Positions 6,334 to 48,220 of a stretch of 64,000 nt of DNA are shown here, piece by piece. The position numbers and the translations under genes were made by a program. Below the pieces are notes generated by a model. The model saw only the letters and a program-made list of their open reading frames with translations, made no database searches and was not told where the DNA came from. This DNA comes from a virus, in the IMG/VR virus record IMGVR_UViG_3300049846_001597, positions 1 to 64,000 of that record; one strand, given 5' to 3'. Position 1 is the first letter of the stretch; every line of letters begins with the position of its first letter.

Positions 6334-6358
6334 CAGTGTTTGACTTCGATGACGGCGT

Positions 6359-29761: not shown

Positions 29762-30247
29762 TCAGTTTTCTTCGCGCTCGCCGCCTTTCGGCACAAGGTC
29801 AATCGGATCGGTGGAGTTGCCGCCTGAATAGACATATTGCGCCGCGAACGTGAACGTATCTATGGCGGCCCCGCCGTCGCTGTCGTTGGTGACAGTGACG
29901 GTGCCGGTGTCGTAGTTGCCGGATGGGAACGTGTAGGCGACATAGACGGCAAAGTAGAGTTGGTCGCCCACGCTTGCGTTGACAGTGATTGGCGTCAGTG
30001 TCGGCGACTGCACCGCAACACCGTTCTTAAACCACTGACCCTTGGCGGGGTTGCCGGATGTTGAGGTCCACGCCGCGCGCAGCGTAATGACGTTATCGAT
30101 AGCGGCGAGCGTTTGCACGGAGGCCGAATTGTTTTCGTAGCCGGTGCTGGTGTCGGTGACGCTGATGTTGCCCCAATTGAGCGCGCTTGGGGTGAAGTCG
30201 GAGCCGCCGCCTGCGGCGCGGCTTTGCACAAAGATAATTGTCGCCAT
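29762..30247 (-). CDS. Tail fibre-associated beta-rich protein
   Basis: Thr/Ser/Gly-rich, coupled to the fibre gene. Confidence 0.5.
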   Translation of the reverse strand: MATIIFVQSRAAGGGSDFTPSALNWGNISVTDTSTGYENNSASVQTLAAIDNVITLRAAWTSTSGNPAKGQWFKNGVAVQSPTLTPITVNASVGDQLYFAVYVAYTFPSGNYDTGTVTVTNDSDGGAAIDTFTFAAQYVYSGGNSTDPIDLVPKGGEREEN

Positions 30248-31263
30248 CAGCTGTTTCGCTTGTAACCGATGAGCGCAAGCTTGACGCCGGTTGCGCCAGA
30301 GGTGCCGACTTGATCGAAATCCACGGTGATGAGCGAGTCATCCGTCACCGACACAACTGAGCTGGTGAGCACCGCTGCGGTCGCCGCTGTGGTTGACGTG
30401 GTTTCGTTGTTGTCAATTGTGAGCCGGGTGGAGAATACGGATGCAGAAGCGATATTGACGTCAAAGGTCAGGATGGAGCCGCCCGGCTGCGCTGTCGTCA
30501 GCGAGCCGCGCACTTCGGTCAACTCAAACGCGCACGGCGCGCGGGTGGTGATCTTGGCGTTGCCGCTGGTGATGGCGGTGCTCTCGTCGCCGATGCCCAT
30601 CTGATAGATGAAGCTCTCGAAAATCGCCTTGCCGGTGGCGGTCATGCCGCCGATCAAACGGGTGACGCCGCCGCCTTCGCCGATGAAACGCAGGATCATG
30701 CCCGCTTGCGTGGTGATGTTTGCGCCGCCGAGGAGGAGGTTAGCGGAATGTGCTATCGTCAGGACGCCATCGAACACCACGATGCGCTCTGCGCCTTGCG
30801 CCAACGTGATGGTGGAAATGTTTGTCGTGCCGGTGATGTGCAAGAAGTTGCCGGTGGCGGCGTCGAGATCGATAGCGGACGCGGACGCGATAGCTGCGCC
30901 TTCCGCCCAGCGCAGCGGCCCCGTCATCGCGCCGCCCGCTTTTTGCAAGTACCCCGAGAGGTCGCTGGCGACGAGGAAGCCCGCAGCTTTGTAGATTGGA
31001 TTGATGGTGACGATGGTTGAGCCGCCAGAATCCTTCAACACCGCCTTGTAGTCGAGGTCGTCTTTGAAGAAGGCTTTCGGAAAACGCCCGGCGCTGTTGG
31101 CGGTCAACACGCCTGCGGTTGAGGCGGGCGTCACCCAATCAATGTCGGTGTAGACCTCTTGCAGCACATCGGCGAGCGAATAGAAGGTGAGGGTGCAGCC
31201 GCTCTCCACTTCGCTGGAGGCGTCAATAACGGAGGCGAGGGCGTCGGCGACCGGACGATGCAT
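30247..31263 (-). CDS. Tail fibre/spike protein
   Basis: N-terminal head-binding-like region (L.FY......VYTD...LTANSAGRF), YLQK.GG.MTG repeat, beta-rich C-terminus. Confidence 0.7.
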   Translation of the reverse strand: MHRPVADALASVIDASSEVESGCTLTFYSLADVLQEVYTDIDWVTPASTAGVLTANSAGRFPKAFFKDDLDYKAVLKDSGGSTIVTINPIYKAAGFLVASDLSGYLQKAGGAMTGPLRWAEGAAIASASAIDLDAATGNFLHITGTTNISTITLAQGAERIVVFDGVLTIAHSANLLLGGANITTQAGMILRFIGEGGGVTRLIGGMTATGKAIFESFIYQMGIGDESTAITSGNAKITTRAPCAFELTEVRGSLTTAQPGGSILTFDVNIASASVFSTRLTIDNNETTSTTAATAAVLTSSVVSVTDDSLITVDFDQVGTSGATGVKLALIGYKRNS

Positions 31264-31277
31264 GCCCAGATTATCGG

Positions 31278-32354
31278 CTACGCCGCCTCATCGCGGCCTT
31301 CCGCCGCCAGAGCCGCTTGCAGCGCCGCCAGGAGGCCAAGCAGCGGGCCTTTGCCACGGATCATCTCGCTCAGAGCTTGCTCGAAAGATTGGCCGCGCTG
31401 CTCAGCCGTTTCGCGAATGCGATCCACAAGATGCTTCAAGAACGGGTCTGCGCCAGATTGGACGCCCGTGATGTCGCCGCCGCCAACCCATGCTGCGGCC
31501 TGCGCCTGGGGGCCGGTGAGGCCGCGCTCTTTGCCGAGTGACTTGTAGTAATCGGCAAGCGCGCCATACTCGCTGTCTAAGCCTTTGCCGCCCCACCATG
31601 ACGGCTGCTCTAGCGCCTCATCTATGTCGATGAGGCCCATGTGGTAAGCTTGGCGCGGATTGAATTGCTCGCCCTCAAACGTCACCGGATTTTTGCCGTT
31701 CTTCAAAAAACGCGGGTCGGCAGAAAAGATCGACGGCAGCGCCAGCGCGTGACTGTCTATGGTCACTGGTTCATGGTTGCCTGCAAGGTTCTCAGCGTAG
31801 CTTGCGGTCTTCGGTCCAGTGATCGGAGAGAAGCCGCCATCGTCCATGCGGTCCATCAGTTGCCGGTGGACGCCGCCTGCAAAGTGACCGTAGCCTTCAG
31901 GCGGGACCGGGCGCGACTCACCTGCGCGATCTGCGCCATAAAACAGTGAGGCGCGTTTGATCTGAGTCGCTACATCAGAGCGCGGACTGGTGGCGGCGTT
32001 GAAGTCGATAAAGCGCCGAAACGCCGTTTGTCCTTCCTCGGGGCCAAGCTCAGCGATGAACGCTGCTAGAAGCGGGCGCGTGTCGTACCATTGATCTGCG
32101 CCCATCTCGACGCCGCGATCAATAGTGTCGAGCATGCGGGAGCGAACGTTTGAATTGTTGATGAGGTCGAGCATGCGATCCGGCACGCGGCGCGGACTCG
32201 CATAAGCCAGCGCCTTTTGTTCGCCGAAGGCTTGGCCGGTGAGATTGTCGAGCAGCGCCGTGTCGGCGCCGCCATACTCAATAGCCTCACGCAACGCGGC
32301 TACGAGGCGCGGGAGGGAGGGGGCTTTAGGCATCTTCGCTCGCTTTCGCGCCAA
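31278..32354 (-). CDS. Putative virion-delivered protein, HhH-glycosylase-like/DUF7178-like domain
   Basis: WY, AATSPRS, GPKTASY..NL, VTIDSH, QAAAW motifs. Confidence 0.6.
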   Translation of the reverse strand: MARKRAKMPKAPSLPRLVAALREAIEYGGADTALLDNLTGQAFGEQKALAYASPRRVPDRMLDLINNSNVRSRMLDTIDRGVEMGADQWYDTRPLLAAFIAELGPEEGQTAFRRFIDFNAATSPRSDVATQIKRASLFYGADRAGESRPVPPEGYGHFAGGVHRQLMDRMDDGGFSPITGPKTASYAENLAGNHEPVTIDSHALALPSIFSADPRFLKNGKNPVTFEGEQFNPRQAYHMGLIDIDEALEQPSWWGGKGLDSEYGALADYYKSLGKERGLTGPQAQAAAWVGGGDITGVQSGADPFLKHLVDRIRETAEQRGQSFEQALSEMIRGKGPLLGLLAALQAALAAEGRDEAA

Positions 32355-33231
32355 CGCCTGCGCCCGCCAACGCGATCAGCAACATCGCGAGGCGCTTGCG
32401 CAATTCCTCAAGCGAGATTTTGCGACCGTCTACACCTTCGTTGTAAACCCATTCGGGCAGGAGGCCGACTTTCTGATCGGCATAAACCGTATCTTCCTGA
32501 CTGGCGGTGCGGTTCTTTGCGCCGAAGGGGCCGTAATTCACCCACGAGTTTTGCCCGCGCGTTTCAGCGGTCAGCGCAGGCAGCGCCATATCGGAGAACA
32601 TGCCGCGATGATGGCGGAAGGCGTTCTCTTCGCCGCCAGCGCGGAAAGTCGCGCCAATCGGCGCGTGACCGAAGGCGTCATGCACGGCGCGGAACGCATC
32701 GTTTCGGGTAAACGGCGCGCCGCCGAATGCGCGCCGCCCAAAACCGCGCACCGGCTCCAACAGCGGATTGAGCACCGCCTCATTGATCGAACCGAAACCG
32801 TCTTCGCTGGGAAAGACAGAAAGATGCTGGTTCTCGCGCAAATCCGCGAGCGCTGCTGCTGGCGTGTCGTAGGGGCTGCCGCCCTTCGGGATGAAGTCGA
32901 ATTTGTAACCTTTGTCGAGCAACAGATCGAGCTGATCCAAGGTTTCGTCGCCCATCGCGCCCCAGGAAGCGCGCACCAGCGGGTCGGATGGATCGTTGAC
33001 CATCGCGTCATAGGCGGCGGCGATGCGCGCGCCGCGTTCAGGATCAGCCGCAGCCCAATGCGTCGGGCGCTCGCCGCCGAGGCCCATGCCATCGGCGTAG
33101 CTGTCTGCAATCAAGCGTAGCCGTGCATTTGGACGCACATGCGTAGGCGAGCCAACGAGCGGCGCCTTGGCCGCCAGGACAGCTTCCAGCGCCGCCCTGA
33201 GGCTAGACCCGGAGGGACGCATACCAACCAC
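32326..33231 (-). CDS. Putative virion-delivered protein with FRAVHDxFGH domain
   Basis: NDAFRAVHDAFGH...F...GEENA...H..MFS..A..A...ETRGQNSWVNYG, recalled from phage polyvalent proteins. Confidence 0.6.
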   Translation of the reverse strand: MVGMRPSGSSLRAALEAVLAAKAPLVGSPTHVRPNARLRLIADSYADGMGLGGERPTHWAAADPERGARIAAAYDAMVNDPSDPLVRASWGAMGDETLDQLDLLLDKGYKFDFIPKGGSPYDTPAAALADLRENQHLSVFPSEDGFGSINEAVLNPLLEPVRGFGRRAFGGAPFTRNDAFRAVHDAFGHAPIGATFRAGGEENAFRHHRGMFSDMALPALTAETRGQNSWVNYGPFGAKNRTASQEDTVYADQKVGLLPEWVYNEGVDGRKISLEELRKRLAMLLIALAGAGVGAKASEDA

Positions 33232-34274
33232 TAGGTCGCCTCGCTTTCCATCTCACGCTGAAGCGCTTGGCGCACTGCGCCCATCGAGAGGCCGAGGCCG
33301 CCCATAGCGGTGGCGATCTTGAAGAAATTGGCGAGACGCTGCACCTCGCTATTGTTGCGGCGGTCGCGATACTTGCCCCACAAGCCCTCGCCGCGCACCA
33401 GCGTCTTGGCGAGCGGCGTATCGAGTGCGGAGAAGGGGGCGGGGCCAGAGCGAATGTCGGCCAGCGACTTATAGGCGTTTTTCTCGGCCCAACGCGCCAG
33501 CGCCTCGCCAAGCTCGCGCTTGTAGACGCTCAACGCGGCGTGATCGCGGATAACTTCTGGGTTGCTGAGGGCGTAGTCGTAATACTGACGCATCTCAACC
33601 ATCGCCGCTTTATTGGCGGGCGTCGGGTCGCTCCAGTAGGCTTCCTCGGCGTCGGCAAGCATCCGCTTCAGCGCGGGCATCTTGTCGTCCACCGACTCGG
33701 TGACGATGCGGGAAGCGCGAGCGCTATCGATGGAGGTTCCCCACGGAACGCCTTTGCGATTGTACGCGACGGCGTGCTGGGCCTCATGCGCAAGCTGATA
33801 AGGCACTTGTTCGCCGGGCTCCAAGCGCGCACGCTCGGTGCCAAGGCGAATGTTGATGTCACCATTGTCGTACACCTCGGCTACGCCGCCGCCGCGTTGC
33901 TCTGGATCGAGAATGAGCTGAATGCGGTCCCGTAAGCTCTTAGGCAGCGGCGCGCCCGTCACAAACGCATCGAGGTCGCCTGCATTGAAGCCTGCGAGAT
34001 CGGCCTCCGACATATCGGTTGTCATCCGCGCATCGGCCCACGAGCGCGGGCCTAGCCAGACGCCGGTATTGTCGAGGTCGGGCGACAGCGTGAGGCCGGT
34101 TTCATCCCAGACGCGATCTTGGTCCCAGCCGCTTTCCAGCATGCTTTGCGCCCGCTGGGCGGCGCGCGAACGCGGGCTCACCGGATAAAGCATGCCTGCG
34201 GCGTTGGGATCGACCGTGGTCGCCTCCAACAGCGCACGCAGGGCGCTCATAAGCGGACGAGGGGCGGCGGCCAC
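33231..34274 (-). CDS. LPD23-like domain plus zincin-like metallopeptidase
   Basis: AQSMLESG.D.D.VWDETG (LPD23-like); LAHEAQHAV (HExxH); Y.R.LGE..AR. Confidence 0.65.
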   Translation of the reverse strand: MAAAPRPLMSALRALLEATTVDPNAAGMLYPVSPRSRAAQRAQSMLESGWDQDRVWDETGLTLSPDLDNTGVWLGPRSWADARMTTDMSEADLAGFNAGDLDAFVTGAPLPKSLRDRIQLILDPEQRGGGVAEVYDNGDINIRLGTERARLEPGEQVPYQLAHEAQHAVAYNRKGVPWGTSIDSARASRIVTESVDDKMPALKRMLADAEEAYWSDPTPANKAAMVEMRQYYDYALSNPEVIRDHAALSVYKRELGEALARWAEKNAYKSLADIRSGPAPFSALDTPLAKTLVRGEGLWGKYRDRRNNSEVQRLANFFKIATAMGGLGLSMGAVRQALQREMESEAT

Positions 34275-34784
34275 TTACGCGCCTCCAGTTGGCGGCGCAG
34301 GCTCGACATAGAGCGCGCCAATGACCCTGCGCCCGGCTGCTGTAACCACCGATACATCGGTCGAGGCGAGGTAGGTCTGCGACCCGCCCGCGTTCCCGGC
34401 GTCGTCGTAATAGACGTAATAGGTCTGGCCTCGGGTCACGCCGGTCACACTCCCAGCCGCCAGTGTAGCAGCGGCGGTCGAGCGGGTGTGCTCGGCCACG
34501 GTGATGGTGGCGGAGCTGGCGGAGGTGGCCTCGTAATCCAAAATCTGGCTCTCAGCCGGGGTGTGATAGTAGCCGGTGGTCATGCCAAACATCGCCGCGC
34601 GCAGCATCGCTTCCGCTTCAAACGCAGTCGCGCGCGCTTCGCGCACATGATCTTCGCGCTGGCCGCCGAGGCGGCGGATGATGTCTGTAAACAGACGCAC
34701 GACATGGCGCTCAAATTTGCCGCCTCTATCCACCACGCGAATAGCGGCGTTCGGGATGTCGAGGTTGATGAGGGGGTTACTCAC
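34275..34784 (-). CDS. Virion tail-associated protein
   Basis: Beta-rich C-terminus (TYYVYYDD); follows the tail hub gene; start GTG 34784 or ATG 34802. Confidence 0.55.
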   Translation of the reverse strand: MSNPLINLDIPNAAIRVVDRGGKFERHVVRLFTDIIRRLGGQREDHVREARATAFEAEAMLRAAMFGMTTGYYHTPAESQILDYEATSASSATITVAEHTRSTAAATLAAGSVTGVTRGQTYYVYYDDAGNAGGSQTYLASTDVSVVTAAGRRVIGALYVEPAPPTGGA

Positions 34785-34947
34785 TGGCGCGCTCGGCAGC
34801 ATAGGCGGCGAGGCCTGCGGGTGCGCCAGCGGAAATCAGGCTCGCAAGATCAAAAACTCTCTCTACGCCGCGCGGCAACGGCACTTCGGGCGCAAGCCGC
34901 CCAAGCATATCGCGCAAGGCGACGCGGAGGAGATCACTGCGGCTCAT
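34777..34947 (-). CDS. 56-aa mini-protein consisting of the shared N-terminal motif plus a hydrophobic tail
   Basis: Hand-translated MSRSDLLRVALRDMLGRLAPEVPLPRGVERVFDLASLISAGAPAGLAAYAAERASE; TAATG coupling; fills the intergenic gap exactly. Confidence 0.6.
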   Translation of the reverse strand: MSRSDLLRVALRDMLGRLAPEVPLPRGVERVFDLASLISAGAPAGLAAYAAERASE

Positions 34948-35567
34948 TAGTAACGAAACGCTCCGAACTTAGCGGGTTTAAGCTTCACTGTTTTCGCCGC
35001 GCGCGGCTGCTTTAGAAGCGCGCGCTCGGTGCGCGCCTGCTCAATCGTTGTCTCCATCACGCCAGATGGCTCGCGTGTGTGGCTGCGCAAAATCTCTACG
35101 CTGTCAGCGACACGATCAGGAAACACGACCCTGTGGGTGGCGCGGTTTCGCGACACAAGCGGGTCATCGAGGATATTGACGAAATCGACGCCATCGTACC
35201 CCTCGCGGCGGGCGGCGGATGTTTCTCTCAACATCCAGTCGCGCTGCTTGCCGAGGCTGCCGCGCTGCTTTTCCAGCGCCGGAACATCTACTGCTTTGAA
35301 CCGGCCACGGATGCGCGCCTCGATCACGCGCCCATCGTTTTTATCGCGCGGCGTGTCGCTGTATTTGAGCGCCAAGCGACGGAAGTTGTCGCCTTGCTGA
35401 CGCGAATTGGTGAAGAAGACGCCAGCAACAGACCCCGTTCCCATGCGCTTGTCAGCGAGGTTGGGGTCGAAGCTAGTGAACTCCGTATCGCCCGTGCCGT
35501 GATACCACGGGCCGCCATCATCAAGCGCGTCAGCCAGTGCGCGGCGCAGGGGGGCGCTGTCGCTCAT
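34947..35567 (-). CDS. ADP-ribosyltransferase-like protein (ART-PolyVal-like)
   Basis: WYHGT...F.SFD......G.FFT.S, GYDGV.F.N..D, VVF. Confidence 0.65.
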   Translation of the reverse strand: MSDSAPLRRALADALDDGGPWYHGTGDTEFTSFDPNLADKRMGTGSVAGVFFTNSRQQGDNFRRLALKYSDTPRDKNDGRVIEARIRGRFKAVDVPALEKQRGSLGKQRDWMLRETSAARREGYDGVDFVNILDDPLVSRNRATHRVVFPDRVADSVEILRSHTREPSGVMETTIEQARTERALLKQPRAAKTVKLKPAKFGAFRY

Positions 35568-37018
35568 GTCGGGTCTTCGTTGATCCAGACGCCAGAGAAG
35601 GCGAAGTTGATGGGGTCGGTGATGCGGATTTTGAGAATGACGCCATCTGCGGCGCGCGCCATACCCATACGCCAGAGCGTCGGACGCTCATCAAAAGCCC
35701 CGCGCTTGCCGAGCTGCACACGCCGCTCGACCCCGCGTTCGGAGAGACTGTCACGCGAGCCGCCATCAGTGTAGAACGTGAGGGTCGCCACCGGATCGTA
35801 GCCGCGCTGGCTCTCCGCCAGAGGCACATCCGTGCATTTCAAGTCGAGCGTGACGGAGTTAATGATGGTGCGCGCAGCCACCGGCACATGCAACGTCACA
35901 ATGCGCTCGTGCGGGTCGCCATCGTCGCTATAGACGTTTTCTTCCCAGCTCCACACCACGTCGCTCTCATCGGAGGCGACAACGTGTTTTCCAGCGGCGT
36001 GGAAGAACGTGTAATAGGTCGGCGCATAGCGCATAGCGACGCCTGGGTCGCTCCAGCTGGTGCGCTCGCTCCACGTTTGCGTCAGCGTGTCGTAAGCATA
36101 AGCTTTGCCAATCGGGAAGCGCAGCACCCAGGTAAGGTGCGAGCCTTGTGCGTAAGCAAAACACTGCAGCGCCTGCGCTTCGGTGTCGGAGAGGGCGGCC
36201 AGCGCCATTTCGATCTCGCGGTTCGACACGCGCACAGGGGTGTAGCCATTGAGCATGTAGACGACACGATCATCGGCCACCCACATAGCGGAGCTGTCGA
36301 GCTTAGCAATGGCGTCGCGACCGACGATGCCGCGATCTATGACGATGGTGAGGATGTCGAAGGCGTCGGCGTCGTCGCCGCCCATAGCGCGCCAGACTTG
36401 AGTGGAGTTTGCGCCAAAGTGCCAGAGATCGCCGCCGATCACGATCTGGCTGCGGATTTCATCCGGTAGACGAGCTGATGAGGCAAACCCTGACGGGGGC
36501 CAATCAAGCGGGTTACCGACGCTTGACCAATCGAACTGATCTGATCCTTCGGCGTTGGTGATTGCGCGATCCGCGAGCGACGCAAGTGTGTAAGCATTGA
36601 GTGGGAAGTCTTCGTCGGTGCAAATTGAGAGGTCGGTCCCGTCATATTTGTAGAGGGAGCCGCCCGCGAGCAGCACCAAGTTGGCGCCGACGCTATCAAA
36701 CAACACCGTGCCGGTTGCGCCCTGAATGGGGCCAAGCGCGGTCGCCGTCCAGCTGCTGGTGACGCGATAGAGTTGTGAGCCAGCCGCAACGAAGAGGTCG
36801 CCGTCGAGTACGCCAGGACGCGAGAAGACGCCGCGCACGAGGTCGCCCGCAGAGGGCGTCACCCGCTCTTGGCGGCCCATGCACGGCGCGATCAGATATT
36901 TGCTGCGCTTGGCGTTGCCGAGCGGCTGCGGCTCGACAACGCAGTTGCGCAGCACCAAAGGCGTACAACCCTTCGTGCTGCGGTCGTCAGAAGAGGGGGC
37001 GACCGGAAAAAATGGCAC
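35564..37018 (-). CDS. Packaged-DNA stabilisation/tail hub protein (P22 gp10-like)
   Basis: Beta-propeller-like; FASS...PD, LW.FG..S.QVW, RVSN..IE, YD..T..W.ER, G.RG....R..W..G. Confidence 0.8.
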   Translation of the reverse strand: MPFFPVAPSSDDRSTKGCTPLVLRNCVVEPQPLGNAKRSKYLIAPCMGRQERVTPSAGDLVRGVFSRPGVLDGDLFVAAGSQLYRVTSSWTATALGPIQGATGTVLFDSVGANLVLLAGGSLYKYDGTDLSICTDEDFPLNAYTLASLADRAITNAEGSDQFDWSSVGNPLDWPPSGFASSARLPDEIRSQIVIGGDLWHFGANSTQVWRAMGGDDADAFDILTIVIDRGIVGRDAIAKLDSSAMWVADDRVVYMLNGYTPVRVSNREIEMALAALSDTEAQALQCFAYAQGSHLTWVLRFPIGKAYAYDTLTQTWSERTSWSDPGVAMRYAPTYYTFFHAAGKHVVASDESDVVWSWEENVYSDDGDPHERIVTLHVPVAARTIINSVTLDLKCTDVPLAESQRGYDPVATLTFYTDGGSRDSLSERGVERRVQLGKRGAFDERPTLWRMGMARAADGVILKIRITDPINFAFSGVWINEDPT

Positions 37019-37024
37019 GGCTTA

Positions 37025-37123
37025 TTATGCCGGAGCGCTGCATAGTGCGATGATGAGCGCCAGACCGGCGAGCATCAGCCACTTCCACGGAACCAGCTGA
37101 TGCCACGGATACCTAGTACCCAT
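37025..37123 (-). CDS. 32-aa single-TM peptide
   Basis: Hand-translated MGTRYPWHQLVPWKWLMLAGLALIIALCSAPA. Confidence 0.35.
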   Translation of the reverse strand: MGTRYPWHQLVPWKWLMLAGLALIIALCSAPA

Positions 37124-38387
37124 AAGCATCCATCAGCTCACGCTCGTAGTCGTTTTCGCGGCGTGCAAGAATTGGGGTGTCACCGAAGAAAGCAGCGTTG
37201 CTGAAGCCTTCGCCCACGGCTTCGGGACCGGCGCGACCGAGGCGGCCAGTCTCGCGATGCGAGAGGAGGCGAATAAGCTCCTGCGTGAGCTTGGAATTGG
37301 CTGGCGCATTAAGCGCGTCGAGGACACCTTGGTTTTCGGCGACATCAATGCTCGTGAGCGGACGGAAGTTGCCGCGTCCGCGCCGAATGATGTTTGAGGC
37401 AGCCGAACCGTAATTGTGCATCAGCACGTCGCGCACCAATTCGAGATTGTTGTCGCCGGTTGTGTTGCGCAGCCGCGCCGCCTGCGCCGCGCCTTGTGGC
37501 AAGTCGCCGCCAGCCGCCTGCCATTGCGCGCGATAAGACGGCGGCGCATTGGGCATTTCGAGCGCCTCTATCACGCGCGCGCCCTCAGGGGCGCGATTGA
37601 TGCGTTGTGCGACGCCAGCGATGTCGTCGCCTGCCGCGCCCATTGCGCGGTCCAGTGCATTGACGGTGTGACCGTTCACGCGCGGCGCGCCGGGCGTACG
37701 ACCAAGCCCTATTTTCATGCCGATAGCGTGAGCCGGAATGCGCGCTAGTGCGTTGATGGCGGGGCCGAGCAACGCAGCGCTCCCGCCTGAAAACGCTGCG
37801 TTGAGCGGCATATTGGCGAGCCTATTATCGAAGCCTCGCTGACCCGGCAGCATGCCGCCTTCGGCGGAGCCGTAGCCATAAAGTGCGCCCATTGGCGCGC
37901 CAACCAACCCCGCCGTCAACGCTTGCCGACGCCAGCCCGCGAACCCACGTTGCGCGCCGCGCGACAGAAAGTTGGCAATTGGGCGACCTAGCCGCCCAGC
38001 TTGCGCCGCGCGCCCTAACGCTGCGCCAGGAAACACAAAGCTTCCCGCTGCGCCAATAAAGGCGCCAGCGTTCGTCCACCCCTCTCGTGTTGCGCGGTAG
38101 TGAGCAAGATCATTGCGCGCGCGACGGACGCCATCGCGGAAACCGCTTTGGAAGTCGCCGCCAGACGCCATCGAGAGGAGGCCATTAAGTCCGCCCATAG
38201 CTTCGTCGCCTAAACCGAAGCTAAAGGCATCCATCGCGCCAGCGCGAACAGCGTGCGCGCGATCAACCCATTCGGAGCGACGGGGGGTAGGTGGGCCGCC
38301 GTCATCAAGCCACTGCGTTTGCGCAGGTCCGCGCGCTGGCGGCGCAACCTGCGGTGGCTGCTGTTGATCCAACCATTCCGTTGTCAT
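37113..38387 (-). CDS. DNA ejection/internal virion protein
   Basis: D.FSFG.GDE, Gly/Ala-rich GALYGYGS.EG segments; third gene of the ejection trio. Confidence 0.7.
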   Translation of the reverse strand: MTTEWLDQQQPPQVAPPARGPAQTQWLDDGGPPTPRRSEWVDRAHAVRAGAMDAFSFGLGDEAMGGLNGLLSMASGGDFQSGFRDGVRRARNDLAHYRATREGWTNAGAFIGAAGSFVFPGAALGRAAQAGRLGRPIANFLSRGAQRGFAGWRRQALTAGLVGAPMGALYGYGSAEGGMLPGQRGFDNRLANMPLNAAFSGGSAALLGPAINALARIPAHAIGMKIGLGRTPGAPRVNGHTVNALDRAMGAAGDDIAGVAQRINRAPEGARVIEALEMPNAPPSYRAQWQAAGGDLPQGAAQAARLRNTTGDNNLELVRDVLMHNYGSAASNIIRRGRGNFRPLTSIDVAENQGVLDALNAPANSKLTQELIRLLSHRETGRLGRAGPEAVGEGFSNAAFFGDTPILARRENDYERELMDAYGY

Positions 38388-40477
38388 CGGCTGCGCGCCC
38401 CGTTCGCGCGCACGACGCCCCGGCGACCGTCGCGGGTGCGGAAATAGATGTCACGCCCGCTGCGATTGGCGCGCGCCTGCATATCGCGTTCTTCGCGGCT
38501 GCCTGCCCATGCATCGGCATTGACCGGCACCTCAACCGGGTAGCCCTCAACCGCGCCTTGCTCTTGTGCGTCGCCGTGACGAACGAAGGCCCAATGCGGT
38601 TCCGATGATTGCGCATCGAAACGGAAGAAATCGCCGGTTTGCGGAACCTGTACTTCACGACCGTCTTGCGGCGCATCCGCCAAAATCGCCCAATTGGCTT
38701 GCGTGTATGGACGCAGCGCCGTGCGTTCGACCTCTGACCAGCGGCGACCTTGCGCATCAACGCCGCGCTGAAGCGAGCCCGCTTCGTAGATGAACTGACG
38801 ACGCGCGGAAGATAGCGCGCGCGAACCGAGGAGGGCGGCGCGTGATTTACGCAAGAAATTGATCGCAGACTCCAGCGTCCATTGGCCGGAAACGATGCCG
38901 CGCAAAGCCGCCTGACGTTCGCCTTCTGAGATCGGCTGCAAGCCTTGCAGTGCTTGCAGCAACAGCGGCCACGTATTAGATTGAATGTCTTCCAGTAGCG
39001 CTTGGCGGCCCGTTGAGCCAGCAAGGCGCGCCAAATCTGTGTTCATGTTATCCGGCAGGATAGTGCCGTTTTCGCTATTACGGGCGAGCGACATAAAAGC
39101 CGCCTCAAGCGAGTCAAGGCTGTAAAGCGCCTGTTCACGCTGATCTTCCGCCGCGAAATTTCGTTCGTAAATTTGAATTTCACCCGGCGTCGGCTCCGCG
39201 TACCCAGGCGACTGACCGGCGCGGGCGCGCTGCCCTTCCCGATTGCGGTAGTTCTCATCGAGGCGCTGCGCGTAGGTCAGCGTCATCTGCTCAAGCGCAT
39301 CGAGTTCGCTGTCTTGGATGCCGTCGCGACCAAGGTTTTGCAGCATCGGCATGATGTCATCGGCGAGCAGCGGTTGACCGTTGGTGTCATAAGCATACGG
39401 CGTGTTTTGCAGCCAATGCATCGCCACCGGCAGACGCTGCTGCTCGGGGATGCGACGCAACGCCGTCACCATCTGTTGCGAGAACTGTAAGCGCGCGCCG
39501 AAAAGATCGACAGCGGTGGCGCGCTCATCGTCCATCAGCGCCGAGATGCGCTCTAGGCCATCCAGGTCGCCCATCGACATGGCTTCCTCGCGCAATCCAG
39601 CGAGGATGCTCATGTTTTGAGTGAGCTGCGGCGGAGCCGCCTGCATGATAGCTTGCTCTAAACCTTGGAAGCCACCATCAGCAGGCGGGCCGGTGGGTGC
39701 GGGTGCGGCTGCGGCGGCAGGCGTCGGCCCGCCTGTAATGGGGCCGGTCGGCGCGACGGCTTGCGCTTCCAGGGGTCGAGCGTTGTCCAGCAGTATGCGC
39801 GCAGCATCGTCGCCGTTATATGTGCTTGGGCCAGCTTCTGGCTCATAAGGGTTTGCATACGGCGTGGGGTCGGGCTGAGCGGCGCCCGGTGACGCCGTGT
39901 TCACGCCGGAGCGCGCCCGCAAAGCCGCCGCAGAGGGCGTGTCAAAGACCATGCCGTCGCCGCGTGCGCCGCCCGGCTGGTAAGCCTCATTGAACTGCAT
40001 TAGCCCGAGGCGCTCCGTCCATGACGGCGCAAGCGGCGTCTGCTGAATATCGGTTTGCGGCGGCGGCGCAGTCACGACTTGCGGCTGCGCCGAGGGTTGC
40101 GGTTGCTGCGGCAAGCCGGGGCCACCCGGTTGGCCGGGTGCGATTTGCATCTCGGGGCCAGAGTAGGGCGTGGCCGGGACTTGCGGCAGCTGCGGGGCCT
40201 GCGGGGCAGGCGCCGTCTTCAGCAACGCATTGCGCTCATTATCCGCGCGCCAGTCATAGCGGTTCGGCAGGAACACATTCTGGCGCGCCCAGGCATAATG
40301 ATCGGGCTCGTTGACGTCCAAGAAGCTGTTGAGGCTGTCTTCCAGTTGACGCGGGTCGCGCGAAGCGAGCGCGTTGCGCATGCTGCGCATGGCGCGACCC
40401 TGGTTGGCGCGTCGTTGACGCCGCTCGCCGTGGTCGTAACCTTCGCGGAAGGCGCGGCCATAATCATAGACTGCCAT
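38384..40477 (-). CDS. DNA ejection/internal virion protein
   Basis: Pro/Gln-rich linker, helical C-terminal half, position after pilot protein. Confidence 0.65.
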   Translation of the reverse strand: MAVYDYGRAFREGYDHGERRQRRANQGRAMRSMRNALASRDPRQLEDSLNSFLDVNEPDHYAWARQNVFLPNRYDWRADNERNALLKTAPAPQAPQLPQVPATPYSGPEMQIAPGQPGGPGLPQQPQPSAQPQVVTAPPPQTDIQQTPLAPSWTERLGLMQFNEAYQPGGARGDGMVFDTPSAAALRARSGVNTASPGAAQPDPTPYANPYEPEAGPSTYNGDDAARILLDNARPLEAQAVAPTGPITGGPTPAAAAAPAPTGPPADGGFQGLEQAIMQAAPPQLTQNMSILAGLREEAMSMGDLDGLERISALMDDERATAVDLFGARLQFSQQMVTALRRIPEQQRLPVAMHWLQNTPYAYDTNGQPLLADDIMPMLQNLGRDGIQDSELDALEQMTLTYAQRLDENYRNREGQRARAGQSPGYAEPTPGEIQIYERNFAAEDQREQALYSLDSLEAAFMSLARNSENGTILPDNMNTDLARLAGSTGRQALLEDIQSNTWPLLLQALQGLQPISEGERQAALRGIVSGQWTLESAINFLRKSRAALLGSRALSSARRQFIYEAGSLQRGVDAQGRRWSEVERTALRPYTQANWAILADAPQDGREVQVPQTGDFFRFDAQSSEPHWAFVRHGDAQEQGAVEGYPVEVPVNADAWAGSREERDMQARANRSGRDIYFRTRDGRRGVVRANGARSR

Positions 40478-41250
40478 TAGATGCGCCCAGGTTTAGGCGT
40501 GACGCCCTTGGTGGACGTGACGGTTTGCGTGGGGCCGCCGCCAAAGAAGTTGCCGACCGCCTTGCGGGTGTTATTCCAATTGAAGCCGCCATTGGCGATC
40601 TTGGCGCTGATGCCGCCCAGCGCATTCGAGATCGCCATGCCGCCAGTGGCGGCGGCGTCCTGCAAGCCTTGGCCGCGTTGCAGCGCAATTTGACTAAGCG
40701 CGTTGCCCTGATTGGCGAAAGCATTGGCGGCCTGACTACCGACACCCATTGCCGCGTTAGCGATGCCGGTGCGTGCGGCGTCGCCGCGATCCACGTAGCC
40801 CTTGAGGCCAGTCAGGTGCGCTTCACGGCCAGCCATCGCCAACTCGTAACCTTGTTGGCCCGCCGCGCGCAGCGCCTTGCCTGAATTGATTGCGCCGCCT
40901 TTGCCAAGTGCGGCGTTGGTGGAAACCAGCGCGTTGTGCGCTTTGGCCGTGTTGTAGTCGGCTTCGTTCTTGTAGAAGGAGCCGTTGTAAGCCGTATTGT
41001 ACGCGCCCGCTTGCGAGGGATCGATGCCGAGCGCGCCACGCACCAAATTGTTGGGCGTGGTGCTATCGTTCACCATCGGCTGCATTTGCGCGGTGGCGCG
41101 GTCGTAGCCGAGATTGAGTTGTTCGATTTGCTTGTCGGTGGCGTACTTCTGCGCATCCGCCGCCATTGCAGCAGAGTCTTTGACGGCGTTGGCTTGGGTC
41201 TTGGCGTTAGCCGCGCCGAAGATGCCCTGGATTACGTCCCCGATGCACAT
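40477..41250 (-). CDS. DNA transfer/pilot protein (P22 gp7-like)
   Basis: MC start, Ala/Gln-rich, AA..GG..SG..LRA motif. Confidence 0.75.
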   Translation of the reverse strand: MCIGDVIQGIFGAANAKTQANAVKDSAAMAADAQKYATDKQIEQLNLGYDRATAQMQPMVNDSTTPNNLVRGALGIDPSQAGAYNTAYNGSFYKNEADYNTAKAHNALVSTNAALGKGGAINSGKALRAAGQQGYELAMAGREAHLTGLKGYVDRGDAARTGIANAAMGVGSQAANAFANQGNALSQIALQRGQGLQDAAATGGMAISNALGGISAKIANGGFNWNNTRKAVGNFFGGGPTQTVTSTKGVTPKPGRI

Positions 41251-41695
41251 AAGAAAACAGTCTAAAGGGGTGGCCGTTTATGCTGGCTTCGCCTAGCCAG
41301 CTGAAGCCGCAGGCCTCAATAAAGCGATGATGCATGACGTTACGCTTGTCGGAGGCATTGAGCAGGCAACCCCATTTGCACCCCCACGCACGCACCCAAC
41401 GCGGCACATGCTTGAGGGTGAAGTAGCGGGCGCGGCTGACATCATCCGCGCAGAGCATCCAGGGACTTGCGCCGTAAGCGGTTTGCTTCGCGCCAAGAAT
41501 GGCCAGCACCCGGCCCGTGGCCACTTCAACCATTGCGCGCGCGTCGCCGGGTTTGGCGAGGTCATCGGTCAGGCGCGCGTAGATGTCGCTCGCGCCAGCC
41601 GCTTCTGCTTCGCGCGCATCTTCAGGCCGCAGCCGCAAAAGCAGATTGACGACATCTTCTTGGTTGGCGCGCCGGAAGGTGAACTTAGCCGCCAA
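41207..41695 (-). CDS. GNAT-fold virion protein (T7 gp13-like)
   Basis: LR.ED.RE, PWML, L.N..D.RN..H.RFI..CGF. Confidence 0.8.
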   Translation of the reverse strand: MAAKFTFRRANQEDVVNLLLRLRPEDAREAEAAGASDIYARLTDDLAKPGDARAMVEVATGRVLAILGAKQTAYGASPWMLCADDVSRARYFTLKHVPRWVRAWGCKWGCLLNASDKRNVMHHRFIEACGFSWLGEASINGHPFRLFSYVHRGRNPGHLRRG

Positions 41696-42194
41696 GCTGC
41701 TGGAGCTGCTGCTGGAGCTGCTGGATCATCATGTCGATTTGCTGGGCGCGCGGATCGTCTTCTGGCAGAGATTGGCGCATCTGCGTCAAACGCTCTAGTT
41801 GCTCCATGAGCTGCATCGGGCGTTGCATGACGGTCTGCTGAGGGCGCTGCTCGCGCAAGGCGCGCTCAATCGCCACGCGCAGAGCGCGTGCGCCGCCGCG
41901 TGCGCCGCCTGCGAGCGTACCACCCGCCACACCTAAGACGCCACCCGTCGCGCCGCCCGCGATGGCGTTGCCCATCGTGTCGGTTTCGGAGCCGCCGTTC
42001 ATGGCGTTGACATCAGAGTAGCCCGCGCCCATCGCTGCGCCTAAGCCGACGCCGCCTGCGGCTAAGCCGCGCCCGTTGCGACCCATGAACTCTTCTGCGC
42101 CGCCGCGCACGCCGCGCGTGGTTTGTTCACCAATATCGCCCATTGCTTCACGCAGGAAGCGCAGGAACGTTGAGGATGGAACTGTATCAGCCAT
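41685..42194 (-). CDS. Glycine-zipper protein, candidate ejected protein
   Basis: Two GxxxG-rich hydrophobic stretches, Gln-rich C-terminus. Confidence 0.6.
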   Translation of the reverse strand: MADTVPSSTFLRFLREAMGDIGEQTTRGVRGGAEEFMGRNGRGLAAGGVGLGAAMGAGYSDVNAMNGGSETDTMGNAIAGGATGGVLGVAGGTLAGGARGGARALRVAIERALREQRPQQTVMQRPMQLMEQLERLTQMRQSLPEDDPRAQQIDMMIQQLQQQLQQLGG

Positions 42195-43759
42195 TAGGCA
42201 CCCATTTCACGCATGATAGCGCCACGACGCGCCTCGCGGTCTGCAACCGTTGAAATCGCTGCGCCGACCCCGCCCGTTACGAGATAGGGGAGGACAATCG
42301 AGAGGGCGTCAGGCTTCCGCGCCTTTTTGCCTAACCCCGCCTCGCGCAGCGCCGCGTAGACGGTTTGCTCGATGCTGTTGTCGGTTGAGTCGCGGAAGGA
42401 TGGGTCGCGGCGCAATTCAGCAATCAGACGCCGCGCGTCGGTCATGCCGCCAGCAATCAGACGCCGCGCTTGATTTTTGGTTGAGAGCTTGTTTCCGCGC
42501 CACGGGCGCTGCGCAAACAGACGCACGCGATCTGGCGTGACATTCCATAGCTTCGCAAGGATGGCCACCGCAGGTTCGCCCGCCGCAACAGCGCGGTCAG
42601 CGTACTTAAGCAGCCGATCCAACTGGACGCCGATAATATTTGCGCCTTCACCCTCATCGTCTCGCAACGATGCTGAGATGTCGGCGCGCTTCGGGTAGAA
42701 GCCGCGCTCGTTCATTGTCGTGGCTTCGTTGACAATATCGGCTTCGTTATACTGCCCGCGTGTTAGCTTGAAGACTTTTTTGACCCCAATCGCCTCGCCA
42801 AGTTGCGCCCGCTCAGCCCGATCTTGCGCTCGCCCTTGTGCGCGCGCGTAACGCTGTTGCGCGGCCTCCGAGTGAGAGGCGCGCTTGGCTTCGATACGCG
42901 CAAGTCTGGCGCGCGCGGCTTCCAGCGCCGCCGCATCGGACGGCGGTCGGTTGTCAAATGCAGGACTTCTGGGTCGATCTGGGATCGGGATGCCCAAGCG
43001 CTTGCGCGCATACGTCATCGCACCTTTTAGCGCCTCCATCGTCGGAAGCTCGGTGGCGTTGAGCACCTGCTCCATTGTATAAACAGGCCGCCCATCGGGG
43101 TGGCGGGCGCTATACATGATGATCGCGCGCGCTTTGTTGGCCTTACCTTTCAGCGAAGGATAGCGGTCGAGTAAGACCTTAAAGTCTTCGGGATTGGAGG
43201 GTAGCGGCTCCGCCTGTCGCCCAAGGCCAGCCGCACGCCGCATGCGGCGCGGATCAAACGCAGCGCCGCCAAACAGCACGGAGCCCGCCGAATCTTCATC
43301 GAGGTCTTGGCGCGCAGAGTAGGGGCCAAGATACTCATCGAACATCTCGTCCGATCCGCGCTGGCCTGACTCAAGCACGTCCGCCATGCGAACGGGCGGC
43401 AAACCCTTGAGGGTGTTGACGTCATCCAGCATGCGGCTGGTGTGCTGCGCGAGCGGGCGCGTGGCGTCAGCGACCCGCCGCTGGACGCGCGACATCGATT
43501 GTGCTTCCGGGTCACGGATGTGCATCGCAGGCGAGCGGATGTCAGCTGGCAACGAAGGGCGCAGCGCATTGCGGGCGAGACGCGACAAAACTTGCCGCGC
43601 GCCATAGCCGCCCATCGCTCCGATCATTGCGCCGCCAAGCGCGCCGCTTGCATCGTTCTCGCCAAGCGCGACGCCACCGGTTGCGCCAGCGAGGCCGCCA
43701 AGAAGAGGAAACGCCGCCTCATCGATTGCGCGGAGGAGCGCGGAACGCAGCGGGTTCAT
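42194..43759 (-). CDS. Candidate ejected protein with N-terminal glycine zipper and HTH-like segments
   Basis: MNPLRSALLRAIDE, Gly zippers, basic HTH-like regions, C-terminal hydrophobic helix. Confidence 0.6.
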   Translation of the reverse strand: MNPLRSALLRAIDEAAFPLLGGLAGATGGVALGENDASGALGGAMIGAMGGYGARQVLSRLARNALRPSLPADIRSPAMHIRDPEAQSMSRVQRRVADATRPLAQHTSRMLDDVNTLKGLPPVRMADVLESGQRGSDEMFDEYLGPYSARQDLDEDSAGSVLFGGAAFDPRRMRRAAGLGRQAEPLPSNPEDFKVLLDRYPSLKGKANKARAIIMYSARHPDGRPVYTMEQVLNATELPTMEALKGAMTYARKRLGIPIPDRPRSPAFDNRPPSDAAALEAARARLARIEAKRASHSEAAQQRYARAQGRAQDRAERAQLGEAIGVKKVFKLTRGQYNEADIVNEATTMNERGFYPKRADISASLRDDEGEGANIIGVQLDRLLKYADRAVAAGEPAVAILAKLWNVTPDRVRLFAQRPWRGNKLSTKNQARRLIAGGMTDARRLIAELRRDPSFRDSTDNSIEQTVYAALREAGLGKKARKPDALSIVLPYLVTGGVGAAISTVADREARRGAIMREMGA

Positions 43760-44355
43760 TGGCGACCTCCACGATTCCGCATCTGCCGCAGCATCGCTTC
43801 CGCGATGAGGCGGGTTTCCTCTTCACCAAGCCGCTCAGCGCGCGCAATACGACGACGAACATCAGCGTGATGCGGCGCACGCTCCATGCGCTCAAGAGTG
43901 CGGGCGGCATTAAAGCTGTCGCCTTTGCCGATGGCCCACGCCGCCTCCGCGCGCGCCGCCTCTTCGCGTAAGCCGATGCGGCGCAAATGGCGGATGTATT
44001 TCTGAAAAGCTTTGACGCTCTCTTTTGCACCCATGCGCAAAAACGAGCTGCGACCAGCCGCCATCCCGCTTAGCGCGCCCAAGGCGGCGGCCCCGCCCAC
44101 TGTCGCGCCAGCAAAATTGCGGAAGCCTTCATGCTCGCCCTCAGTCAAATCATAATCAGACAAAGCGCTAACGCCGCCTGCGATGGCGTAGGGGTAAAGC
44201 CCAACGGGCAATCCGAGCATGCCTCCAACTTGTGCGCCGCCCGCGAGCGCGCCTTCGGCCCGGTCTAGCGCGCCAGACGCCGTGCGTTGCACGCCGCGCA
44301 TGGCGGCGCGGGCGCCGTCTTGCAACGCCAATTGGAGGGCGGCCCGCAGACTCAT
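43756..44355 (-). CDS. Glycine-zipper protein, candidate ejected protein
   Basis: MSLRAALQLALQDG; two hydrophobic Gly-rich stretches. Confidence 0.6.
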   Translation of the reverse strand: MSLRAALQLALQDGARAAMRGVQRTASGALDRAEGALAGGAQVGGMLGLPVGLYPYAIAGGVSALSDYDLTEGEHEGFRNFAGATVGGAAALGALSGMAAGRSSFLRMGAKESVKAFQKYIRHLRRIGLREEAARAEAAWAIGKGDSFNAARTLERMERAPHHADVRRRIARAERLGEEETRLIAEAMLRQMRNRGGRQ

Positions 44356-45029
44356 CGCATCACATTCAAATCGACGTCGCCCCAGCGGTCGAAGCCCATG
44401 ACTTGCTCGTAGAGGGTTTGGGCGCGCTCACGGATGCGCTGGCTGTTGGTGTCGATCAGCTGATAATCTTCACACAGACGCGCCGCGAGGCAGATGACAA
44501 TCGCCTCAGCAAACTCCTCAGGGACGTCGATCTCGTCGTTGCCGGAATCGACAGTCTCGATCACCCGCTCGTAGCCAACTTTGAGCGTGTAGGTTCCGCT
44601 GCTAAAGGAGGGGATGGGCCACAGTGTTACTGTTGTTGAGGTGCGCTGCTTGTCGAGCACGTAAGCGACAGGTTGGCCGGTATTGGCTTTGAAGATAAAC
44701 CGATCCCAATCCTGACGATCCCATTCGGTGAGCGGCAGCCGCTCCTCGCCATCCTCCAGCCAGCGCACATTGTAGACGAGGCGCGGGCGCGGGTTGAGCG
44801 TGTAGGTCTGCGTCCCAGAGACAAGCGTCACCGTTTGCTCGGCGCGCGTCCACAGATTGGGGCCTTCCGTTGACCACGACTTCAACATCTCGTTGAAGAC
44901 ATCGAGGCCGTTGCTCAGCTCATCAGCTGACGCCTCAAAACCTTGGCCGAGGACGCCAAGCTTCTGCAACGCGCGCGACACGTAATGGGCGGCGGTTTTT
45001 TGATAATCGATGACGCCAGAGAGGGCCAC
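44352..45029 (-). CDS. Head-tail adaptor protein
   Basis: AL..LG........A......L...N.ML..W...G.NLW, G.P..Y, LWP.P, P.E...A....LA..L. Confidence 0.8.
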   Translation of the reverse strand: MALSGVIDYQKTAAHYVSRALQKLGVLGQGFEASADELSNGLDVFNEMLKSWSTEGPNLWTRAEQTVTLVSGTQTYTLNPRPRLVYNVRWLEDGEERLPLTEWDRQDWDRFIFKANTGQPVAYVLDKQRTSTTVTLWPIPSFSSGTYTLKVGYERVIETVDSGNDEIDVPEEFAEAIVICLAARLCEDYQLIDTNSQRIRERAQTLYEQVMGFDRWGDVDLNVMR

Positions 45030-45032
45030 GGC

Positions 45033-45242
45033 TTACATGCCTCCCTTGCCGCCAAAGAGGCCCTTGGGGTTCATAAAAGCGTTCTGCGTCACGCCGGTCG
45101 TTGGGCCGCGCGGATTGGCGCTGGGCGGCTTGATTGCGCCCCCGCCATTACGGCGCTTGCCGCCTTGCGACGGCGCGCCAAACATCTCCGGGTTCTGCAT
45201 CCAGAATTGGCGCAGCAGGTGAGGCGGCCACTGATACATCAT
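45033..45242 (-). CDS. Small Gly/Pro-rich hypothetical protein
   Basis: Coupled ORF in virion operon. Confidence 0.45.
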   Translation of the reverse strand: MMYQWPPHLLRQFWMQNPEMFGAPSQGGKRRNGGGAIKPPSANPRGPTTGVTQNAFMNPKGLFGGKGGM

Positions 45243-45781
45243 GGACGCTCATCCCATTCATCGGGGTGGTCGTTGCCGGAGTAGCCAACGTAGTCGGTGT
45301 TCAGTCTGCTGATGATGTCGCGCATGCGTTGTTCGCGCGCGTGCTGGCGGCGGAAGTTGTCGAAGCGCATGCGCCACGTTGAGCGCGAGAAATTCGGCGC
45401 ATCGTCGGAGAGATGCTCGGTCACCGCCTCGTTGCCGCTATTGGCGACGGACAGCTCCGTCATAAGCGCCTCAAGCAAACGGCGTTGCTCGCGGACGGCG
45501 CGGCGCTGTTCGCGCAACGGATCATTGCGCTGTCGCGCATACTCAAGCGCGGCGGTTTGGCCTAAAACCGTCCCGCCAAGAGCAACCGCGAGCGTCGGGC
45601 GGATGTCGCGCTCGAAACTATAGACGCCTCGCTCGCGCTCCATATCGGCAACCGCACGGGCGCGATCTCTTTCGGTGATGTGTCTGCGCCAGCCGCGCCC
45701 GAAAGCGCCTCGGCCATAAGCGCGACGCGGCATATTAGAAAGCGCGTTGTCGGCGGCGGAGCGAAGCAGGCGGCCAATCAC
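45239..45781 (-). CDS. Hypothetical protein, candidate ejected protein
   Basis: MIGRLLRSAADNAL; central hydrophobic segment. Confidence 0.5.
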   Translation of the reverse strand: MIGRLLRSAADNALSNMPRRAYGRGAFGRGWRRHITERDRARAVADMERERGVYSFERDIRPTLAVALGGTVLGQTAALEYARQRNDPLREQRRAVREQRRLLEALMTELSVANSGNEAVTEHLSDDAPNFSRSTWRMRFDNFRRQHAREQRMRDIISRLNTDYVGYSGNDHPDEWDERP

Positions 45782-46008: not shown

Positions 46009-46058
46009 CGCATCAGTGTAGGCGAGAGCAGCTTTCTGCTGCCCTCAAACCCACCGGG

Positions 46059-48158: not shown

Positions 48159-48220
48159 GGTTCCCCGCTTCAATTGAAGTCCGGGGAGGGTTGAGCGGGT
48201 TCGGTTAAGAAGAGGTTACG

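Follow-up and report, generated by a model that had tools for sequence, protein, structure and literature searches.

The DNA analysed here, referred to below as the window, comprises bases 1-64000 of a 72,312-bp phage contig of ~61% G+C (IMG/VR record IMGVR_UViG_3300049846_001597). Between positions 31278 and 45781 it contains nine minus-strand genes whose products begin with a similar short helix, called the leader, with the gap-free consensus L-R-x-A-L-x-x-A-(L/I)-x-(D/E). The nine N-termini had been quoted in an earlier note made from the letters of this DNA, and all of them exist; a tenth carrier was found outside the window. As that note had proposed, the carriers are otherwise unrelated, every pairwise comparison outside the leader giving E > 0.1. 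All nine in-window carriers belong to one co-oriented late operon, where they lie between adaptor and tail fibre, often with overlapping stop and start codons. The leader is a real N-terminus-specific motif, conserved at the protein level far beyond chance. The analysis is based on 97 genes predicted by a self-trained codon-usage caller, to which a 56-amino-acid (aa) open reading frame (ORF) was added, giving 98 proteins with 21,463 aa.

Taken from high to low coordinates, all on the minus strand, the first carrier is a 180-aa protein (45239..45781) with a weak leader, LLRSAADNAL, at residues 5-14 and an internal hydrophobic stretch at residues 63-79. The next is a 199-aa protein (43756..44355; leader MSLRAALQLALQD, residues 2-13) with two Gly-rich hydrophobic stretches. 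Then come a 521-aa protein (42194..43759; leader PLRSALLRAIDE, residues 3-14), hydrophobic at residues 15-33 and 485-506 and with a charged C-terminal end, and a 169-aa protein (41685..42194) in which a loose leader, FLRFLREAMGD (residues 10-20), is combined with a Gly-rich middle and a Gln-rich C-terminus. Further along, a 206-aa protein (34947..35567; leader PLRRALADALDD, residues 6-17) has an ART-PolyVal ADP-ribosyltransferase-like core and is devoid of a hydrophobic tail. The adjoining putative 56-aa ORF (34777..34947), which falls below the 60-aa limit of the ORF listing and overlaps the start of the next ORF by ~26 nt, encodes only a leader (LLRVALRDML) joined by a linker to a hydrophobic tail that ends in charged residues. 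The row is completed by three larger proteins. The 347-aa carrier (33231..34274) combines the leader (P)LMSALRALLEA with an LPD23-like stretch, an invariant HExxH and the C-terminal tail GGLGLS.GA.R.AL. The 301-aa carrier (32326..33231; leader SLRAALEAVLAA, residues 10-21) has a core named FRAVHD here after a conserved motif (PHROG 3170, residues ~34-268), followed by a C-terminal hydrophobic tail. The 358-aa carrier (31278..32354) has a loose leader, LVAALREAIEY (residues 17-27), a DUF7178 core (residues ~51-342) and likewise a C-terminal hydrophobic tail. Outside the window, a 163-aa protein (genome 70455-70946, minus strand) bears the leader SLRQALLRTLER at residues 6-17. Family scans gave no match for the 163- and 180-aa carriers; together with the 521-, 199- and 169-aa proteins, these have no family and no homologue where searched.

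Exact LR.AL, starting at residues 3-11, is present in six proteins (301, 56, 206, 521, 199 and 163 aa); the 180-aa carrier has the variant LRSAADNAL, and in three others the hydrophobic register alone is kept (358 aa, LVAALREAIEY; 347 aa, LMSALRALLEA; 169 aa, FLRFLREAMGD). Among the 98 proteins, LR.AL occurs seven times, six of them N-terminal and one internal; the long form LR.A[LA]..[AMVT][LIM] is found seven times at N-termini and never internally; and a loose pattern is found ten times at N-termini and once internally, this last match being the C-terminal tail of the 358-aa protein. In 300 shuffles of the N-termini, the corresponding means were 0.15 for LR.AL, 0.013 for the long form and 0.157 for the loose pattern. 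The 443 non-gene ORFs of the same DNA have LR.AL at 2 of 8,860 N-terminal positions (two that may include the 56-aa ORF) and at 4 of 32,514 internal positions, and 138 other loci of phages or prophages (1.84 Mb, 9,750 ORFs) have the long form at an N-terminus only three times. In its strict form the motif is absent from genes outside the late operons. A crude de novo version of the motif search suggested in the earlier note found the motif unaided, at 74.5 (9 sites, 6 carriers); one of 12 shuffles reached 50.5, the other eleven stayed at or below 17.3, and one internal control gave 23.2. Pairwise scoring of N-termini, in the genome or in all fetched loci, was too noisy, with spurious Arg/Pro-rich non-coding ORFs dominating.

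The codons under the motif vary synonymously (CTC/CTG/CTT, CGC/AGG/CGT/CGG and GCG/GCC/GCA/GCT), so that the conserved entity is the peptide, and a DNA or RNA element under the motif was rejected for the same reason. Codons 2-26 of the ten carrier genes have a G+C content at third positions of 0.70, which is coding-like (0.72 for all genes). That Leu/Ala/Arg helices are simply common at 61% G+C, and their grouping a reader's artefact, is hardly credible. This explanation can draw on the three loose matches in ten, fitted after the fact, on the single shuffle at 50.5 against 74.5 and on single pairwise N-terminal scores, which are unexceptional. It is opposed by the positional bias (six of seven and seven of seven), by the counts in non-gene ORFs and in other loci, by the clustering of the carriers in one operon and by the link between the motif and a C-terminal tail described below. 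The caveat of high-GC composition that accompanied the first description of the motif is thus contradicted both by the non-gene ORFs and by the 138 loci.

At least four of the bodies behind the leaders are, by sequence comparison, stand-alone domains of giant polyvalent or internal-virion proteins, namely ART-PolyVal, LPD23 with HExxH, FRAVHD and DUF7178. The 'ART-like' middle listed in the note is borne out in the 206-aa protein by a match to ART-PolyVal (E 1.7e-4, under the Pfam cut-off) and by PF18760 in five of eight homologues (55-71% identity). The 347-aa protein, which answers to the note's 'LPD23/metallopeptidase', matches LPD23 at E 0.007, below cut-off, and has the invariant HExxH; this site aligns to a protein of locus L104 that has LPD23 at E 7e-12 as well as HExxH. 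Only two true homologue clusters of the 347-aa protein were found among 1.84 billion representatives; a further match proved to be a repeat protein over 58 residues and was set aside. The FRAVHD core of the 301-aa protein is that of PHROG 3170 and belongs to the repertoire of polyvalent proteins, and the 358-aa protein passes the Pfam cut-off for DUF7178. Two other labels fared less well: 'glycosylase-like' for the 358-aa protein found no support in family scans, and neither family nor homologue searches sustained a helix-turn-helix character for the 521-aa protein. For the latter, a word-indexed search with 8,000 candidates scored returned no homologue and there was no usable Atlas match, and tblastn against phage records gave nothing for the 521-, 206-, 347- and 697-aa proteins. 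The FRAVHD core is very common in phages, with 437 matches at E <=1e-10 and 562 viral stretches, and has a conserved HD..GH motif. The AlphaFold model of the 301-aa protein is confident (predicted local distance difference test score 89.9), and a fold search with it gave no PDB match at E <=0.001.

The relationship to polyvalent proteins, put forward in the note as a split polyvalent protein, is supported by the way in which the same domains are arranged elsewhere. FRAVHD and DUF7178, encoded by adjacent genes in the window, form one polypeptide, in the same order, in loci L043 (1,156 aa), L032 and L053, a fusion of the Rosetta-stone type; in L055 they are found in adjacent ORFs. Since the two are neighbours here and fused there, the tagged gene row at 31-35.6 kb corresponds to a polyvalent protein in pieces. 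More generally, long ORFs (at least 1,000 aa) contain the FRAVHD core in 34 of the 53 loci from bacterial genomes, where lengths reach 2,000-4,000 aa, and in 21 of the 80 loci from viruses. In the T7-like Octadecabacter Antarctic BD virus 1 the core is part of a 2,986-aa protein that occupies the gp16 internal-virion slot, and in Planktothrix phage Pag-Yong1 it is part of one of 2,772 aa named 'large polyvalent protein'. In L007 ART-PolyVal, LPD22 and FRAVHD are united in one 3,689-aa protein, relatives of ART-PolyVal and LPD23 occur in the same kind of giants or neighbours, and proteins with DUF7178 come immediately after the portal of Microcystis phage MJing1 and that of Roseobacter phage CRP-212. 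In alignments to relatives from other phages only the cores are covered (residues 34-268 of the 301-aa and 51-342 of the 358-aa protein), and leader and tail fall outside. Exactly where the chain is broken, one piece has a tail and its neighbour a leader. In the fused protein of L053 (9605-12247), the FRAVHD and DUF7178 cores are separated by a GGDEF diguanylate cyclase domain (E 3e-13).

The five C-terminal tails quoted in the note are all present. Under a fixed rule (an uncharged hydrophobic stretch, then charges), tails are found in 4 of the 10 carriers versus 3 of the 88 other proteins (Fisher p 0.0017); the tail of the 347-aa protein is under the threshold of this rule, yet is conserved in both of its homologues. 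An uncharged hydrophobic stretch by itself is present in 6 of 10 carriers and 23 of 88 other proteins (p 0.06). The statistical link between N-terminal leader and C-terminal tail is also what favours a role as docking helices, through which the pieces would bind one another or oligomerise into a non-covalent 'polyvalent' complex, head entry being ensured by one member or by another feature; polyketide synthase subunits are joined by docking domains in a comparable way. Three times a gene ending in a tail stands directly before a gene starting with a leader (521->169, 347->301 and 301->358), the tails hold leader-like stretches (LRKRLAMLL, VRQALQREME and LLAALQAALAA), and the pieces are fused in other phages. 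Half of the carriers, however, have no C-terminal tail, the leaders are all alike with no obvious pairing specificity, and the 56-aa ORF consists of both ends with no body. Docking, which is in any case compatible with a loading function, is therefore considered rather unlikely as the explanation of the leader.

The hydrophobic stretches bear on another possibility, that the accessory proteins have their role outside the virion, at the membrane of the cell that produces the phage, for example in phage exclusion, envelope remodelling or lysis timing. Besides the 6 of 10 versus 23 of 88 proteins just mentioned, the frequent location of accessory genes among phage tail genes agrees with such a role. 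On the other hand, the leader ends acidic and is without the Lys/Phe/Trp face that is usual in membrane-binding helices, and the ART-like carrier is without any hydrophobic segment. Moreover, elsewhere the same cores occupy the gp16 internal-virion slot or follow directly after the portal, and the carrier genes are tightly coupled within the structural operon. A role restricted to the membrane of the producing cell thus appears distinctly improbable.

The build of the 301-aa protein was compared with that of its homologues by aligning 16 of the 437 FRAVHD matches, picked from 120 listed. The nine closest (49-68% identity) all keep 'ELR..', the Gly/Ala hydrophobic stretch and the charged end, and in seven of them the conserved R.P..GAP entry to the core is preceded by an Arg/Leu/Ala helix; as called, the closest homologues include an N-terminal stretch equivalent to the leader region. 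The tail is found in none of the seven more distant stand-alone homologues aligned, which have a different N-terminal extension of ~150 aa instead.

Leaders shared between neighbouring genes were also found in other lineages. In locus L009, a 12.5-kb contig, two successive proteins (4287-6931), a FRAVHD protein of 303 aa and then one of 578 aa, are alike in their first ~28 residues only (50% identity, E 7e-5); a scaffold-like protein and a head protein are encoded shortly downstream. In L104 (747-3468), L086 and L088, nearly the same 27 residues, ..PSKYAAALQYLQQMRDRA..., stand at the start both of the FRAVHD protein and of the LPD23/HExxH-type protein that follows it; in the L104 pair a weaker similarity continues to about residue 160, so that the shared part may there be a small domain. 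In 13 other loci of the L104 family the pattern found the leader on the FRAVHD protein alone, in L106 it found none, and in L115 the gene next to the FRAVHD protein is that of the large terminase. Three lineages thus have three different leaders; that the arrangement recurs with different leaders points to an N-terminal module that has a function and goes with cargo of this class.

A second resemblance concerns scaffold proteins, as two of the three background matches to the long form are N-termini of scaffold-like proteins beside a head gene (DLRSALEEAM in L119 and DLRGAIESAV in L009). These leader-form helices lie on the proteins encoded at L119:16474-17547 and L009:6933-8093, which have homologues in L115, L125, L095 and L108, other podophage contigs (e.g. 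DDRRAMLEQGF); besides L119 and L009, four homologues keep R-x-x-L-x-x-x-h at the N-terminus. From these likenesses, the leader may imitate a scaffold helix. The 366-aa scaffold-like protein of the window gave no match to the scaffold family of L119 and its N-terminus is without the motif.

The leader carriers and the structural genes are found together in a long minus-strand late operon, the layout of which was deduced from PHROG and Pfam family scans. Three genes beyond the window or across its end were assigned in this way: the small terminase (genome 69630-70268), the large terminase (genome 68127-69629) and the portal (genome 61234-64218, 994 aa), which runs past the window end at 64000. 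The portal is unusually long, and portal profiles match its residues 337-509 only; between it and the large terminase, an unusual position, is a 1,075-aa tailspike-like gene (genome 64581-67808). The major head protein (49054-49971) was also assigned by family scan. Two genes upstream of it, a charged, helical 366-aa protein (51057-52157, minus strand) is the putative scaffold; family scans gave no match for it, and its role is suggested by position and composition. Further down the operon are a head-tail adaptor (44352..45029; PHROG 637 / 12985, Pfam SU10_adaptor, E 3e-15), an internal virion protein (41207..41695; PHROG 308) and three canonical ejection-type proteins of 257, 697 and 424 aa (37113..41250), all on the minus strand and all without leader. 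The 257-aa protein has a weak match to PHROG 598 'DNA ejection' (E 0.003); the 697- and 424-aa proteins have no family match in the scans and owe their presumed ejection role to position. They are followed by a protein resembling the P22 gp10 head closure or DNA stabilisation protein (35564..37018, minus strand; PHROG 578, E 1e-58), for which 42 phage records matched, all at <=30% identity and constituting the nearest phages, and, beyond the carriers, by a tail-fibre-like protein (30247-31263, family scan).

No related loci were found with the gp10-like protein, nor with the ART alignment in viral, metagenome and genome collections. The large terminase is 59% identical to that of Rhizobium phages and 58% to that of Xylella phage Xfas53. 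Rhizobium phage RHph_N2, whose large terminase is the closest (59%), resembles the present phage in the terminase genes and in a weak 53-residue match to the tail-fibre-like protein, but in nothing else, and no leader was seen by eye on 26 of its late proteins. The phage is thus a new podophage with a P22-type head-tail joint; its host can be guessed to be alphaproteobacterial from the terminase relatives and from an outer-membrane beta-barrel gene. This last gene (47622-48173, minus strand), located among the structural genes, encodes 183 aa with a signal-peptide-like start and matches Pfam PF13505 at E 2e-15; its product resembles a host-type surface protein carried by the phage. At 46013-46781, on the minus strand, two ORFs overlap in different frames (244 aa, Ser/Arg/Pro-rich, and 240 aa), codon usage supporting the 240-aa frame over the other. 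The GroES-like look of a 131-aa protein (53187-53582) was not confirmed by Pfam.

As to function, the reading favoured here, on which the balance stands even, is that the leader would load accessory proteins into the phage head; it is drawn from the sequences and from analogy with known systems. A carrier can be viewed as an N-terminal amphipathic leader and a variable body, to which a hydrophobic, Gly/Ala-rich helix ending in charges is often added at the C-terminus, and some ten such small accessory proteins would be made beside the untagged core ejection proteins. A giant protein would need one determinant for procapsid entry; once split into genes, each piece would need its own, and the common leader, as the simplest solution, would be that determinant. 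According to a published account (PMC8402733), ten N-terminal residues of T4 IpIII suffice for the loading of fusion proteins, and P22 ejection proteins enter the procapsid via N-terminal parts in a process that requires the scaffold and not the portal. On these precedents it is proposed that the leader binds a procapsid component, the scaffold being the first candidate. The pieces would then be packed into the head as it assembles and would exit with the DNA when a cell is infected, and the hydrophobic tail might anchor the enzyme to the host membrane close to the site of entry, or keep it within the hydrophobic bundle of ejection proteins in the head. A complex prediction with the putative scaffold, the head protein and the ART protein gave a score of 0.30 versus a mark of 0.32, as a run without controls. 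A broader rule can be put forward only tentatively, and with more doubt than credit: whenever a polyvalent protein is split, each piece would gain the same lineage-specific leader, which would direct it to the inside of the procapsid, perhaps by mimicry of a scaffold helix.

Several observations weigh against the loading reading. Three of the ten carriers fit the motif loosely, and the 163-aa carrier adjoins the terminase genes (just upstream of the small terminase), away from the ejection module. The 257-, 697- and 424-aa ejection-type proteins have no leader, which is therefore not needed for every internal protein. AlphaFold models the leader of the 301-aa protein at high confidence (blocks 77 and 93), so that it could pack on the domain rather than be free. 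Gene calls are a further point: the database entry for the 301-aa protein starts 39 residues later, without leader, and that for the 347-aa protein starts at M9, 8 residues downstream, with the helix at its very end; automatic annotation would consequently hide or shift the leader.

The homologues of other carriers are divided in the same respect. One of the two 347-aa homologues has a leader-like GLRQAIMAGL and the other has no leader, the tail being present in both; among eight ART homologues, four have a clear helix, two a short unclear stretch, and two start directly at the domain, one of these two coming from a 71-kb contig. Two of the four with a clear helix have a second upstream helix, VLAALARELKGY and RMRALAREIKGY, resembling the leader of another cargo of the window, LVAALREAIEYGG. 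Absence of the helix from homologues, which the earlier note had named as a finding that would tell against packaging, therefore applies to some of them, the helix being present in seven of the nine closest FRAVHD, four of eight ART and one of two 347-aa homologues. Wrong start calls could explain the leader-less cases. The overall pattern is that of a leader kept in kind, fast-evolving, and sometimes missing or missed by gene callers.

No family match to a prohead protease was obtained among ~35 proteins in general PHROG and Pfam scans, so that a T4-style cleavage step has no candidate enzyme among these, and a host protease is possible. This result also bears on the idea that the leader serves as a propeptide or as a handle for chaperones; a protease or an assembly chaperone would recognise it, and it would be removed or released in maturation. 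Head proteins of staphylococcal phage 80alpha share an N-terminal cleavage motif, and T4 protease sites follow (L/I)-x-E, a signature that the h-x-D/E ending of the leader (ALDD, AIDE, ALQD) resembles. P22 gp7, in addition, loses 20 N-terminal residues to a host protease (PMC8402733). The acidic end is nevertheless inconstant (LAA, GRL, ERN), the scans of the proteins tested, which represent part of the genome, revealed no prohead protease, and the idea overlaps with the loading reading rather than replacing it; as a separate explanation it has very little probability.

Loading of accessory proteins into heads has been worked out for few phages, chiefly T4 and partly P1 and P22, and injected phage proteins are mostly guessed from gene position. 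If the loading reading is correct, the injected proteins of a phage could be predicted from sequence alone by such a leader, which would also account for the splitting and reshuffling of giant polyvalent proteins with delivery retained, and would provide a small tag for putting chosen proteins into podophage particles. If the broader rule held as well, the tagged genes would be a readable list of the injected arsenal, and an 11-residue tag would be enough for loading a chosen protein into a podophage head and for its delivery to a bacterium. Independent of function is the comparative result that tagged neighbours here are one polypeptide elsewhere and that two other lineages have leaders of their own. 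In the literature searched, from which subscription journals were excluded, no description was found of a shared leader on split polyvalent proteins.

Among known systems, the closest in arrangement is the capsid targeting sequence of T4 IPI-III and Alt, reportedly described by Mullaney and Black in 1996 and said to be portable to foreign proteins. In both cases a short N-terminal peptide is common to otherwise different proteins, non-essential internal proteins in T4 and ten carriers here, including an ADP-ribosyltransferase or a protein resembling one. In contrast to T4, a myovirus, the present phage is a P22-type podophage, no prohead protease was detected in the proteins scanned, and the carriers number about ten, many of them with a C-terminal hydrophobic tail. 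The likeness drawn is one of arrangement; membership of the T4 family is not claimed for the leader, which would, by analogy, work like the T4 sequence. N-terminal routing is encountered in other particles as well. In phage P1, N-terminal regions of the Dar antirestriction proteins direct head loading, which is ordered and dependent on other Dar proteins, and in contractile injection systems such as PVC, N-terminal cargo leaders route effectors into a phage-like particle. The particles differ from the head considered here, and the comparison is by description, not by sequence.

With polyvalent proteins (Iyer et al. 2017, PMC5512222, as far as the available part of that paper goes) the carriers share the ART-PolyVal, LPD-family and HExxH peptidase-like domains and the setting among virion and packaging genes, here between the adaptor, the gp10-like protein and the tail fibre. 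They differ in organization, since instead of a giant protein with 2-15 effector domains per chain there are separate ORFs of 206-358 aa, one domain per gene, with stop codons between them and a common leader, a feature not mentioned in that part of the paper. Smaller ORFs with polyvalent domains beside the giant gene are already reported there for Verrucomicrobium (PMC5512222). The system of P22 gp7, gp20 and gp16, finally, goes with the same kind of head-tail joint, represented here by the gp10-like protein. No tagged protein matches an ejection-protein family, the weak PHROG 598 match being that of the untagged 257-aa protein. In the available part of its description, these ejection (E) proteins are dispensable for assembly, and the three of them have their own binding sites with no common motif reported (PMC8402733). 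In the present phage, by contrast, the E-type proteins are without leader and it is an extra set of about ten proteins that shares one.

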